From: Candidatus Bathyarchaeia archaeon
GTDB taxonomy: Archaea; Thermoproteota; Bathyarchaeia; Bathyarchaeales; Bathycorpusculaceae
NCBI GenBank assembly: GCA_050010755.1
Contig: JBEKKK010000001.1
Location: 1,056,001 to 1,120,000, forward strand
Direction: 5' to 3'
Length of the DNA: 64,000 bases
The position numbers were made by a program, and so were the translations under genes. The notes beneath the pieces are model-generated. The model ran no database searches, was not told the DNA's origin, and was given only the letters and a program-made list of their open reading frames with translations. Numbering within the stretch: position 1 is the first letter of the stretch; every line of letters begins with the position of its first letter. Positions 16,104-21,346 of the stretch are shown here, one piece after another.

Positions 16104-17702
16104 ATGTTACAGCAAAAATTGAGGGAATTTCATTTGGCCACGTCGAAGGAACCTTCAGTCGAGGAGAAGATCAAGAAACTAAAGAGCATGAGGGAGCAGG
16201 CTGGCCTAGGTGGTGGGCAGAAACGAATTGAGGAGCAGCATGCAAAAGGCAAGCTGACGGCTAGAGAGCGCATTAACCTCTTACTCGATGAAGGCAGTTT
16301 CAACGAGATTGACCAGTTTGTCGTTCACCAATGCACCGAATTTGGAGTGTCTGACCGTAAGTTTCTCGGGGACGGCGTAGTCACGGGTTATGGCACGATA
16401 GACGGCAGACTCGTCTACGTCTTCTCGCAGGATTTCACGGTTTTCGGAGGATCGCTCGGCGAGATGTTTGCGAAGAAAGTGTGCAAGCTCATGGATTTAG
16501 CTTTGAAAACAGGTGCACCCGTAATCGGTTTGAATGATTCTGGCGGTGCCAGGATTCAGGAGGGTGTGGCGAGCCTGGCGGGTTACGGTGACATCTTCTT
16601 CAGAAATGTGATAAGCTCAGGAGTTGTGCCGCAGATTTCAGCTGTTTTAGGACCCTGCGCTGGCGGAGCTGTTTATTCGCCGGCCTTGACCGACTTCATA
16701 ATCATGGTGGACAAGACAAGCCACATGTTCATAACAGGCCCAGACGTTGTTAAAACGGTGCTGGGGCAAGAGGTGTCTTTCGAGGATCTTGGCGGAGCCA
16801 TGATACACAGTCAAACAAGCGGCGTTGCCCACTTCATCGCAAAAGACGAAGAACAGTGCATACAAATCGTAAAGAAGATTTTGAGCTACTTGCCCAGCAA
16901 CTACTTGGAGGATCCGCCTATCGTCGAGACCGGCGACGACCCGAACCGCACTGATGAAGGCTTGGCCAAAGTGCTGCCAGAAGATCCTGACAAGCCCTAC
17001 AACACGAAAGATATCATCGTTCGAGTGGTCGATAACGGCGAATTCTTTGAAATTCAGCCCCTGTGGGCGCAGAACATCGTAATCGGCTTCGCGCGGTTGA
17101 ACGGGAAATCGATAGGGATAGTGGCTAACCAGCCGACGCACTATGCTGGAGCGTTAGACATTAACAGTTCGATGAAGGCAGGCAGGTTCGTCCGTTTCTG
17201 CGACGCCTTTAACATTCCGATAGTGACGTTCGTGGATGTGCCCGGTTTCTTGCCAGGCATGGAACAGGAACACGGCGGGATAATCAAGCACGGCTCCAAG
17301 CTGCTATACGCCTATTGCGAAGCCACAGTGCCGAAAGTGACGGTCATCATCAGAAAAGATTACGGTGGAGCTTACGACGTCATGGGAAGCAAACATTCGG
17401 GCGCAGACATCAACTATGCGTGGCCAACGGCTGAGATCGCCGTCATGGGTCCACATGGCGCCATCAACATAATCTTCAGAAAGGAAATCTCTGAAGCCAA
17501 AGACCCTCAGGAAAAACACAACGAGCTTGTCGCTGAGTACCGCCAGAAATTCGCAAGTCCCTACATCGCCGCCCAGAAAGGATACATAGACGAGGTCATC
17601 GAACCCTCCGAGACCCGGCCGAAGCTCATTAGCGCCCTCGAAAGCCTGGCTACAAAACGCGAAACTCGCCCAGCCAAAAAACACTCCAACGTGCCATTAT
17701 GA
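16104..17702 (+). CDS. Acyl-CoA carboxyltransferase subunit (methylmalonyl-CoA decarboxylase alpha / PCC beta / transcarboxylase 12S family)
   Basis: [64 protein letters not shown]. Confidence 0.93.
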
Positions 17703-17852
17703 ATTAGAGCCTATTTGATTCGTACGGGAGTGGCGTCAAGTCTGCGATCTTACCCGCCAGTTTAGGCTAAGTGAATATCTTGACATGGTCGCTTTGGTGC
17801 GAAGCCTTTAAGAATCGTCGAGTCGGCTGTTTGTTGTTTCAGGTTTGAAAGC

Positions 17853-19226
17853 ATGAGCGAGTCCGCTGGGCAAGGGTTGTTTTCTGGCAACTGGTCTCGA
17901 AATTACGGTTTGCTTTTGGCAATCGTGTTTCTTGCGAATTTTGCGAGTTCGATGGTTTCGGGTTCAGCCGTGTTTTTTCTGGTCAAGTCTTTGGCAGTGA
18001 CTCCTGAGGCTACGACGGAATTCATTGGAGTTTTGATTTCCGTGAGCAGTCTAGCTCTGATTTCAGGGAGTTTTGCTGGAGGTTTTCTCGCGGATAGAGT
18101 CGGTAAGAAGCTGACGATTGGTTTGGCCTGCGTGGTCCTCGCCCCAAGCTTGTTTTTCTATTCGGTCGTCAACAGCGTGTTCCTGGTCGTGATCGGATAT
18201 TTCGCGCAGATGTTTGCGATGGCCTTGTTTCAGCCGGCTTTCACTGCTTTCGTGGCTGATTTGAGCAGGTTGAGTTCGAGGGGGAGAGCTTTCGGCGGTT
18301 TCAACTTGTTTTGGATGATTAGTACGGTTCCGGCGCCTTTGATAGGTGGAATATTGGTTGACCGTGTGGGGCTGCGTTTTCCTTTCATGATTGGCTCTGC
18401 GGTGGCCGTTGCAGGTTTGGTAGCTTCTTTCGGGCTTGTGAACCTCTCTGGCAGGGTTGTTCCCCTGGGCGAAGTTTCGGACGGTCAGGTTGCTGAAAAG
18501 GCTCCGATGCCATTGGCCAAGGTTCTGTGGCTTTTCGGGGCAATCTCTCTTTTCACGGGCTTGGCTAACGGGTTGGGTGGACCTTTGCTCAGAGATTTTC
18601 CAATATACAAGTTGGGTGTAGATGCCACACAGTTGGGCCTGATATTCTCATTGGGTTCAGGTTTGGCGACCGCGCTAGTTCAGGTTCCTGGCGGATTCTT
18701 GACGGACAGGTTCGGCCGGAAGCCACTGATGCTCATAAGCTTGCTGGGAGCGCCTTTTGTCGTTGGTTTGGCATTCACTGGGTCACTCTCCCAATTTATC
18801 CTCGTCTGCGTGGGTTTGTTTGCTTTTGGCAACCTCGGTTCTCCAGCGTATCAGGCCTGGCTGATGGAGCTTGTTCACGACGCGCGGAGAGCGAGAGTTT
18901 GGGGATTAATGAACGCGATTATGGGTGCGGGATCGTTTTTTGGGCCTTTCCTCGCCACTTGGCTCTTCCAGACTCAAGCGTGGGTCGCCGTCCCGTTTAT
19001 AGTGGCGGCTGTTCCATGGGTCGTGCAAGTTCCGCCCATCTTGAAACTGGCAGAGACCAAAAAAAGGGAAAAGCCGTCTCCTCACAGTCCACCTATACGC
19101 TTTCGGGTGCGCAGCGTTCCTCATGTTCTAAAGGTGTTTAAACGAGCCATCAGAATGTTCCAACAGAACCACCAGAAATTAATAGGGCTTCGCCGCATTT
19201 TTGCACGTTTGAGGCAAGAGAGTTAA
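17853..19226 (+). CDS. MFS transporter
   Basis: About 12 hydrophobic segments; motif A twice (GFLADRVGKK, GFLTDRFGRK). Confidence 0.9.
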   Translation: MSESAGQGLFSGNWSRNYGLLLAIVFLANFASSMVSGSAVFFLVKSLAVTPEATTEFIGVLISVSSLALISGSFAGGFLADRVGKKLTIGLACVVLAPSLFFYSVVNSVFLVVIGYFAQMFAMALFQPAFTAFVADLSRLSSRGRAFGGFNLFWMISTVPAPLIGGILVDRVGLRFPFMIGSAVAVAGLVASFGLVNLSGRVVPLGEVSDGQVAEKAPMPLAKVLWLFGAISLFTGLANGLGGPLLRDFPIYKLGVDATQLGLIFSLGSGLATALVQVPGGFLTDRFGRKPLMLISLLGAPFVVGLAFTGSLSQFILVCVGLFAFGNLGSPAYQAWLMELVHDARRARVWGLMNAIMGAGSFFGPFLATWLFQTQAWVAVPFIVAAVPWVVQVPPILKLAETKKREKPSPHSPPIRFRVRSVPHVLKVFKRAIRMFQQNHQKLIGLRRIFARLRQES

Positions 19227-20786: not shown

Positions 20787-20788
20787 AA

Positions 20789-21346
20789 TTGCCTACCTAC
20801 GAAGCCACCATAAACGGCAAACAAAGAAAAATCGAACTGAACAGAACCTCGCCAAACTCTTTCACAGCCAAGGTGGATGGCAAACTGCGGCAAATCAAAC
20901 TTCAAAGAGACGGAATCACTTCGGAAGAAGCCTCTGTCATAGAAATAGACGGCAAAACCTACAAAGTTGAACTGTCCAAAACCGAGCCGGGAAAGAAGAT
21001 TCCTGTCAAAGTGGAGGAAGCCAAGTTTGAAGTGGAAGTCCAGACTGCAAAGAGGGGACAGGCGTTTACGAGTTTCGAACCGACACTTCAAGTTGCCGCG
21101 AAAAAAACGGGAACGATGAGGAAGGCTGGTGTCGAGGGTGCGGTGACCGCTCCCATGACTGGCAGGATAGTTAAGGTCAAGGTGAGGAAGGGCGACCAAA
21201 TTAAGGCGGGCCAGGTTCTGTGCGTGGTTGAAGCGATGAAGATGGAGAATGAGATCTCGGCTCCCCGAGCTGGGACGGTTCAAGAGGTAAATGTTGCCGA
21301 TGGAACGCCTGTGAACGAAGGGGAAACGCTCTTCGTAATAGGTTAG
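20789..21346 (+). CDS. Biotin carboxyl carrier protein
   Basis: C-terminal biotinyl domain APMTG...[12 protein letters not shown] start 2 nt after the upstream stop. Confidence 0.92.

Follow-up and report, generated by a model that had tools for sequence, protein, structure and literature searches.

What can two biotin-dependent carboxyltransferases and a single biotin carrier do in a genome that appears to hold neither a biotin carboxylase (BC) to charge the carrier at the expense of ATP nor the membrane subunit of a decarboxylating sodium pump? The question is raised by positions 16104..21346 of a stretch of 64,000 nt (the window, here always the whole stretch) in contig JBEKKK010000001.1 of a Candidatus Bathyarchaeia archaeon (assembly GCA_050010755.1). 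This region encodes an acyl-CoA carboxyltransferase of the 12S type, a pyruvate/oxaloacetate carboxyltransferase of the 5S type and a free biotin carboxyl carrier (Table 1). Our answer is that the three proteins probably make up an ATP-independent methylmalonyl-CoA:pyruvate transcarboxylase of a peat Bathyarchaeon, with the overall reaction (S)-methylmalonyl-CoA + pyruvate <-> propionyl-CoA + oxaloacetate. An earlier note on this DNA, made from the letters alone, had proposed an archaeal enzyme of this kind; the host is indeed an archaeon, of class Bathyarchaeia.

Gene identities were assigned by open reading frame (ORF) calls, profile searches with Pfam and NCBIfam models and comparisons with structures in the PDB. 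ORF calls and Pfam matches agree with the note in that the 12S, 5S and carrier genes are co-oriented and converge on the gene of methylmalonyl-CoA mutase; the stop codons of the carrier and the mutase are 4 nt apart. The note had left out a fourth co-oriented gene, encoding a major facilitator superfamily (MFS) transporter between 12S and 5S. Besides the window, only its two closest loci (L005 and L019) have this gene at the site; in other relatives the site is occupied by a different MFS gene (L021), by histidine kinases or by an aminoglycoside N-acetyltransferase-like gene, or is empty. We classified the transporter as an accessory gene outside the conserved cluster.

The 12S protein matches the structures 1vrg (744 bits), 1xnv (710 bits) and 1on3, the 12S subunit itself (620 bits over residues 18-531), and scores 869 bits with the mmdA model TIGR01117, under the cut-off of 998.8. 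It is expected to catalyse the half reaction (S)-methylmalonyl-CoA + biotin <-> propionyl-CoA + carboxybiotin. For the 5S protein the best NCBIfam models are those of PycB/OadA (PRK09282, 790 bits; PRK12331, 727.5 bits with cut-off 718), which score above the equivalog of the characterised 5S subunit (NF008984, 564 bits with cut-off 827); the PDB matches are 5ks8 (551 bits), 2nx9 (499.5 bits) and 1rqb (461 bits). Its stretches RDAHQS, KDMAG and HLHTH, which we take to be the metal and carbamyl-lysine sites, have aligned counterparts in PycB, in OadA and in the 5S of Propionibacterium. The Pfam scan detected no Biotin_lipoyl domain in this protein, and its half reaction would be carboxybiotin + pyruvate <-> biotin + oxaloacetate. 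The transcarboxylase-like subunit composition seen in the note stands; the proteins are not orthologues of the Propionibacterium subunits.

Neither BC nor a subunit of the OadB/MmdB type is encoded in the window, as the note had stated, and the search of the whole genome for PycA/AccC and OadB/MmdB that it had proposed was negative as well. In the host assembly (2.19 Mb in 8 contigs, 93.46% complete) there was no match to Biotin_carb_C (PF02785) and none to OAD_beta (PF03977); the accC model TIGR00514 reached only 21 bits, on the beta subunit of succinyl-CoA synthetase (SucC), and tblastn with the BC of a relative gave nothing better than an E-value of 0.5. The only ATP-grasp matches in the genome were SucC and a PylC-like/carbamoyl phosphate synthase (CPS)-like protein, which also gave the two weak matches to CPSase_L_D2. 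The latter protein (389 aa; C1:831482-832651, L002:1078-2247) has a PylC-like N-terminal domain only; it scores 82 bits with the 'carbamoyl phosphate synthase-like' model (cut-off 218) and 34 bits with the BC model, and it is without Biotin_carb_C. Carboxyl_trans (PF01039) and PYC_OADA are represented in the genome by exactly one gene each, and there is a single biotinyl carrier; two further matches to Biotin_lipoyl are the lipoyl protein E2 of a 2-oxoacid dehydrogenase and a 138-aa ORF with 22 bits. Because the carrier is single, it is the only predicted target of the BirA-type biotin-protein ligase encoded upstream. It would appear to serve both transferases; as it could be loaded and unloaded only by 12S and 5S, the carboxyl group would move only between their substrates.

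Since the host assembly is incomplete, the absence of BC and OadB rests on relatives. BC was found in none of the five nearest genomes and in 22 of 50 further genomes bearing the cluster; OadB was found in none of the five and none of the 50. Counting the host, 34 of 56 cluster-bearing genomes have neither, among them three with records titled chromosome (L027, L066 and L071). In the 5S tree the window falls into a clade of 25 rows (starred in the tree), in which all 19 genomes tested are without BC. The BC state changes at least 10 times over the whole 5S tree, though some of the changes may reflect incomplete bins. A general limitation is that bins are possibly incomplete or contaminated and that related genomes are not independent samples.

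The relatives that do have BC indicate how the BC-free state arose. In all 16 loci with BC in view, the BC gene lies within the fetched cluster region and is directly followed by a second carrier gene; one deep-branching locus has the order 12S, BC, carrier 1, 5S, carrier 2. The BC of these relatives scores 660.8 bits with TIGR00514 (cut-off 626.5), and the BC-linked carriers (178-194 aa) are 32-39% identical to the window carrier over nearly the full length. In the carrier tree 16 BC-linked and 64 5S-linked proteins are on opposite sides of a single branch (SH-aLRT 96.8); the duplication should therefore be old, with each loading enzyme having its own carrier. BC-free genomes lack the BC–carrier pair as a unit, and in two of them (L015 and L048) the genes of SdhA and the epimerase are adjacent. 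As relatives keep BC and the second carrier in the same cluster, we characterized the BC-free state as derived, reached in the window lineage by loss of this module. The ATP-independent enzyme proposed in the note is supported from gene content, the BC-free state of the cluster being derived rather than original. In G008, a genome of the window's own family (L094, G008:C4:14000-25538, ∼9700-11535), the BC gene is split over two frames and the BC-linked carrier has its C-terminus frameshifted just after [13 protein letters not shown]; these frame breaks may be either decay in progress or assembly error.

The same data bear on the possibility that the trio belongs to an ATP-dependent propionyl-CoA and/or pyruvate carboxylase, its BC being hidden in the unassembled ∼6.5% of the genome or replaced by the PylC-like ATP-grasp enzyme. 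The presence of BC in the same cluster in 22 of 56 genomes, a host assembly that misses genes (e.g. fumarase) and an ATP-grasp protein with no assigned role would all fit such an enzyme. Still, we consider it quite unlikely: the 34 genomes without BC include all 19 tested members of the clade and the three chromosome records, the adjacency of SdhA and epimerase in L015 and L048 leaves no room for BC, and the PylC-like protein has neither a substantial score on the BC model nor Biotin_carb_C. Moreover, BC came with a carrier of its own in 16 out of 16 cases, whereas the host has one carrier only.

OadB was also followed across the class. An even sample of 151 Bathyarchaeia genomes, for which the cross-tabulation was read from four separate tables, had BC in 20 genomes, OadB in 25 (from other families), 12S-type genes in 43 and 5S-type genes in 17; among these 17, BC was present in six, OadB in eight and neither in three (the host, G072 and G118). 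Both BC and OadB are thus detectable in the class, and the OadB count serves as a positive control for its absence from the cluster-bearing genomes. Some Bathyarchaeia families seemed to have 12S-type genes with no BC and no 5S; these cases were set aside, being mostly explained by OadB in the same genomes. The 5S genes linked to OadB are arranged differently. In G005, from another Bathyarchaeia family, the OadB cluster (L095, G005:C1:176500-187500), confirmed with Pfam, encodes in this order a 164-aa carrier, OadB, 12S, a 147-aa ORF of no family, a 493-aa 5S-type protein and a 102-aa carrier. We classified this arrangement as a cluster of the sodium-pump decarboxylase type, different from that of the window.

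Could the window genes nevertheless encode an oxaloacetate and/or methylmalonyl-CoA decarboxylase, working either uncoupled from energy conservation or together with a membrane protein that is not related to OadB? The 5S protein passes the NCBI equivalog of OadA and bears the public name 'oxaloacetate decarboxylase subunit alpha', its tail is related to OadG tails (see below), and other families of the class do have genuine OadB clusters that include 12S and a 5S-type gene. We regard the decarboxylase as unlikely, however, since OadB, readily found elsewhere in Bathyarchaeia, is missing from all 56 genomes with the cluster, the tail is fused to a soluble enzyme with no transmembrane helix, and an uncoupled enzyme would give no reason for two transferases to be conserved as a pair that shares a carrier. 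In addition, decarboxylation of carboxybiotin generally needs the beta subunit.

The 80 best related loci comprised 70 labelled almost all as Bathyarchaeia/Bathyarchaeota, two from Thermoplasmata and eight bacterial; 5S identity to the window is 66-91% in the 70 Bathyarchaeia-type loci and 60-64% in the others. Synteny was counted in 68 Bathyarchaeia-type loci with the whole 5S ORF. The 12S gene is upstream of 5S in 42 of 47 loci with ≥7 kb in view, and four of the five genomes with no 12S nearby have it elsewhere. The mutase gene follows the carrier in convergent orientation in 46 of 58 loci, and the epimerase gene is upstream of the cluster in loci of many relatives. Within the BC-free group the ratios of non-synonymous to synonymous substitution rates (dN/dS) were 0.04-0.05 for 12S, 0.03-0.05 for 5S and 0.15-0.20 for the carrier, in comparisons between neighbours with dS 0.6-1.8 (more distant BC-free pairs being saturated). 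These genes are under strong purifying selection in BC-free genomes. At one bacterial locus, from a Chloroflexia metagenome-assembled genome (L078, 6064-9977), a 12S gene, a 5S-type gene whose C-terminal tail bears a loose similarity and the gene of a free carrier stand side by side; no OadB was found in this genome, and the hidden Markov model of the tail stays below significance there.

These figures leave little room for a view of the genes as decaying left-overs of BC loss with no joint function, which we consider very improbable. Signs of decay do exist in relatives: besides the frameshifted BC and damaged BC-linked carrier of G008, the 5S match of L070 is truncated (query residues 6-405) with no carrier, and L073 has degraded matches to both 5S and carrier, so that these two loci are possible pseudogenes. 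In the window, by contrast, the reading frames are intact, the biotinylation motif is invariant and the linked biotin ligase is retained, and the low dN/dS of both transferases extends over a BC-free clade with saturated synonymous sites.

The free carrier, together with a 5S protein devoid of a biotinyl domain, had been recognized in the earlier note, and both features hold up, the split being kept in relatives. The likeliest start codon of the carrier is TTG 20789, which lies 3 nt beyond the stop of 5S and gives an N-terminus M-P-x-Y-E common to 22 aligned homologues. Among 64 related loci whose downstream sequence reaches far enough, 62 have a separate carrier ORF directly after 5S, and on these two grounds we take the split as genuine. 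A frameshift as its cause was considered and rejected, as both the stop and the restart are conserved. The motif EAMKM is invariant in the carrier alignment, with Lys151 at nt 21239-21241.

In the AlphaFold model the carrier has eight strands in residues 3-85 (pLDDT 62-82), a disordered or flexible linker (residues 89-114) and a confident C-terminal biotinyl domain. The top Foldseek matches are to the BT+BCCP part of the alpha subunit of propionyl-CoA carboxylase (PCC): 7ybu_A (E-value 1.7e-11, 188 columns), then 6ybq_I (a 206-residue piece) and 3n6r, followed by the alpha subunit of methylcrotonyl-CoA carboxylase (MCC) and the BT-BCCP of yeast acetyl-CoA carboxylase (ACC). The TM-scores are low (∼0.4) because the two domains of the carrier are oriented freely. 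A weak match to Pfam PCC_BT, below cut-off, covers residues 7-89 (E-value 0.009). The N-terminal half of the modelled carrier thus resembles the BT domain of PCC. In a BT domain a helix is wrapped by an eight-strand barrel, and the domain holds the alpha subunit on the beta hexamer.

A candidate for the missing helix is the C-terminal tail of 5S. We built a profile from 58 5S tails and a reverse profile from 14 BC tails. The first matched 14 of 14 Bathyarchaeial BC proteins (22-51 bits), none of 11 BCs from bacteria or Thermoplasmata and, among 27,580 six-frame pieces of the host genome, only 5S itself. The second matched 66 of 76 5S rows, missing all nine non-Bathyarchaeial rows and L059, and found only 5S in the host genome (E-value 4.5e-10). 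In hhalign the two tails aligned with 98.5% probability (E-value 2.5e-15, 55 columns, 40% identity). By these profile comparisons the tail of 5S is homologous to the region C-terminal to the BC domain of the Bathyarchaeial BC subunits.

A combined tail profile was searched against 1.84 billion representatives and found 38 proteins, mostly gene fragments, a result that says little on the spread of full-length proteins with the tail. Of 14 matches retrieved, 12 were fragments of 5S or BC and two were small proteins with an N-terminal hydrophobic helix. Ten small matches, including these two, were compared with Pfam: six were OAD_gamma above cut-off, three were BC fragments and one had no family. 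The 5S/BC tail appears, accordingly to these matches, related to the C-terminal part of OAD_gamma (OadG) proteins. The C-terminal amphipathic helix of OadG is described as binding the association domain of OadA, the two together resembling the PT domain of pyruvate carboxylase, and its deletion from gamma as detaching alpha from beta-gamma (Xu et al. 2020, PMC7274780). The 5S/BC tail itself has no transmembrane helix or membrane anchor. In the 5S model an amphipathic helix is predicted at residues 460-482 with modest confidence (pLDDT 57-67). The window 5S tail had no Pfam match at E-value ≤10, and the tail profile gave only chance-level matches among solved structures (E-value 0.51). A weak lead is the BC tail of L047, which scores 23.7 bits with ACC_epsilon, below the cut-off of 25; another BC tail gave an E-value of 0.81.

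Taken together, the models and profiles suggest a PCC-like plug-and-socket assembly. The OadG-like amphipathic helix of the 5S tail would plug into the BT- or association-like barrel at the N-terminus of the carrier; by this proposed docking the carrier would be held on 5S, and the unit so formed could sit on the 12S hexamer as alpha does in PCC. Units of 5S with its carrier and of BC with its carrier would then be interchangeable on the 12S core. One could speculate further, and this wider reading is tentative, somewhat doubtful as a whole, that in Bathyarchaeia BC (using ATP) and 5S (using oxaloacetate) share an OadG-like tail that completes the barrel of their own carrier on a common 12S hexamer. 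BC-bearing species would have a hybrid enzyme that carboxylates propionyl-CoA either at the expense of ATP or, with oxaloacetate as donor, free of that expense, and the window lineage would have a pure transcarboxylase with an origin independent of that of Propionibacterium. On this reading peat archaea could make or oxidise propionate with no ATP spent in the carboxylation step.

A transcarboxylase in this place would link the mutase/epimerase arm with the oxaloacetate–malate–fumarate–succinate arm of a succinate/propionate pathway of the Wood–Werkman type. The partners present in the host genome are SucCD, both mutase subunits, the epimerase, fumarate reductase and MDH-type genes. With fumarase supplied by relatives, a closed ATP-neutral succinate–propionate cycle appears to be available at the level of the clade. 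The flux may run towards propionate or in the direction of propionyl-CoA oxidation.

Several observations weigh against the assignment as a transcarboxylase. Neither class I fumarase (PF05681) nor the C-terminal domain of class II (PF10415) could be detected in the host assembly; since 16 of 16 cluster-bearing relatives do have the class I enzyme, its absence is probably an assembly gap. An assembly that misses fumarase makes the absence of any gene from this genome weak evidence. The genome also contains the PylC-like ATP-grasp protein of no assigned function. The 5S protein resembles the PycB/OadA models more than that of the characterised 5S, with a pass on the OadA equivalog PRK12331, and 12S stays under the cut-off of the mmdA subfamily. 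Finally, BC accompanies 12S, 5S and carrier in 22 of 56 genomes, and 5S may therefore have served originally in pyruvate carboxylation.

The low mmdA score also agrees with a transcarboxylase acting on other substrates, for example acetyl-CoA/malonyl-CoA in the case of 12S or a different 2-oxo acid in that of 5S, and archaeal PccB-type transferases can be promiscuous. Such a change of substrates seems improbable to us in view of the conserved linkage to methylmalonyl-CoA epimerase and mutase, the best matches of 12S, which are PCC beta subunits and 12S, and the 5S motifs, which match those of pyruvate-handling enzymes.

In the literature searched we found no description of a transcarboxylase from Bathyarchaeia/Bathyarchaeota or of this cluster, nor of the docking design. 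PMC7565565 was considered as a possible prior report and rejected; its statement refers to a deltaproteobacterium. The nearest published statement seen is propionate metabolism in Asgard archaea inferred from similar gene sets (Imachi et al. 2020, PMC7015854). The 5S protein bears the public names "oxaloacetate decarboxylase subunit alpha", "pyruvate/oxaloacetate carboxyltransferase" and "pyruvate carboxylase subunit B". The names that imply partners absent from these genomes would lead metabolic reconstructions to assign an ATP-consuming anaplerotic step or an impossible sodium pump. Reading the trio as a transcarboxylase closes an ATP-neutral succinate–propionate cycle instead and offers a testable route of propionate formation or propionyl-CoA oxidation in archaea of methanogenic peat. 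Bathyarchaeia are among the most abundant uncultured archaea of peat and sediments, and to our knowledge their energy metabolism is known only from genomes. The shared tail and the paired dedicated carriers would show a transcarboxylase evolving from a carboxylase by the swap of one module, and the tail would be a simple handle on the assembly of split biotin enzymes.

For window positions 15600-23400 all sequencing runs found were of DNA, from metagenomes labelled as soil, peat, wetland or freshwater sediment, and none of RNA was listed.

Table 1. Features of the window discussed in the text, with strand and main support
Feature	Position	Strand	Support
Fe-S/CCG subunit, fumarate reductase/succinate dehydrogenase	7505-9070	-	Pfam Fer2_3 + CCG
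Flavoprotein, fumarate reductase/succinate dehydrogenase	9084-10892	-	FAD_binding_2 4.3e-105 + Succ_DH_flav_C
Methylmalonyl-CoA epimerase	12942..13358	+	TIGR03081 167.9 bits (cut-off 114.95); Glyoxalase_4 1.6e-26
Biotin-protein ligase, BirA type	13303..14166	+	TIGR00121 214 bits (cut-off 83); BPL_LplA_LipB 4.1e-23
12S-type acyl-CoA carboxyltransferase (PccB/MmdA-like), 532 aa	16104..17702	+	Carboxyl_trans 3.4e-205
MFS transporter	17853-19226	+	MFS_1 9.3e-44
5S-type pyruvate/oxaloacetate carboxyltransferase, 514 aa	19242-20786	+	PYC_OADA 7.5e-54 + HMGL-like 2.5e-16
C-terminal tail of 5S, last ∼60-64 residues	20592..20783	+	Homologous to Bathyarchaeial BC tails
Biotin carboxyl carrier, 185 aa (201-aa ORF 20741-21346)	20789-21346	+	Biotin_lipoyl 1.5e-23
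Methylmalonyl-CoA mutase large (substrate-binding) subunit, 653-aa ORF	21343-23304	-	MM_CoA_mutase 2.6e-228; TIGR00641 800 bits

The mutase gene probably has its true start downstream of the first start codon of the ORF; the Pfam domain begins at residue 131, and the alignment with most relatives sets in only at about residue 65-100. The B12-binding small subunit of the mutase is encoded elsewhere in the genome, on contig C3. We classified the fumarate reductase/succinate dehydrogenase pair (7505..10892) as the succinate side of the methylmalonyl-CoA pathway; the pair adjoins the cluster in several relatives too. Upstream of it, positions 8-7350 encode a CCG-domain protein, the small and large subunits of an Mvh-type [NiFe] hydrogenase, a maturation protease, aspartate-ammonia ligase, a ferredoxin and aldehyde:ferredoxin oxidoreductase. 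At 27889-34845, co-oriented ORFs including a T2SSE-type ATPase and a T2SSF-type membrane protein, with flanking ORFs that have no Pfam matches, resemble a locus for a type IV pilus of archaea or an archaellum-like structure.

How does the window set compare with known biotin enzymes? According to the published description, the transcarboxylase of Propionibacterium freudenreichii (EC 2.1.3.1; 12S, 5S and 1.3S; PMC2909200) likewise consists of three separate gene products, an acyl-CoA carboxyltransferase, a 5S with no biotinyl domain and a free carrier; neither system has BC or a beta subunit, and both are tied to the succinate–propionate pathway. Two of the subunit structures were named above as matches of 12S and 5S, and the third, 1dcz, is matched by the window carrier with 54.7 bits. 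The likeness has limits. By the equivalog score given above the window 5S is not orthologous to the Propionibacterium 5S; it bears the OadG/BC-like tail and would have come to its present setting by loss of the BC module. The Propionibacterium 1.3S is a short carrier with an N-terminal peptide that glues the subunits together, unlike the window carrier with its 185 residues and BT-like eight-strand domain.

With PCC (alpha6beta6) and the archaeal AccC/AccB/PccB systems the window shares a 12S protein that is a close homologue of PCC beta, 1vrg being its best structural match, and a carrier with the fold of the BT+BCCP part of PCC alpha in Foldseek. An acyl-CoA carboxylase, however, needs BC, of which the host genome has none, and the full set of BC, carrier and PccB is found in 22 of 56 relatives; here the position of BC is taken by the pyruvate/oxaloacetate carboxyltransferase with a tail of the same kind. 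In comparison with the two-subunit pyruvate carboxylase PycA/PycB, the best matches of the window 5S are PycB of Methylobacillus (5ks8) and PRK09282, but PycA is missing from the host genome and the carrier is separate rather than the C-terminus of PycB, with the break at about PycB position 460. The OadABG and MmdABCDE decarboxylases, finally, have alpha-type transferases homologous to those of the window and an OadG tail akin to the 5S/BC tail; in contrast to them, the 56 cluster-bearing genomes have no OadB, and the tail is unanchored and carried by soluble enzymes.

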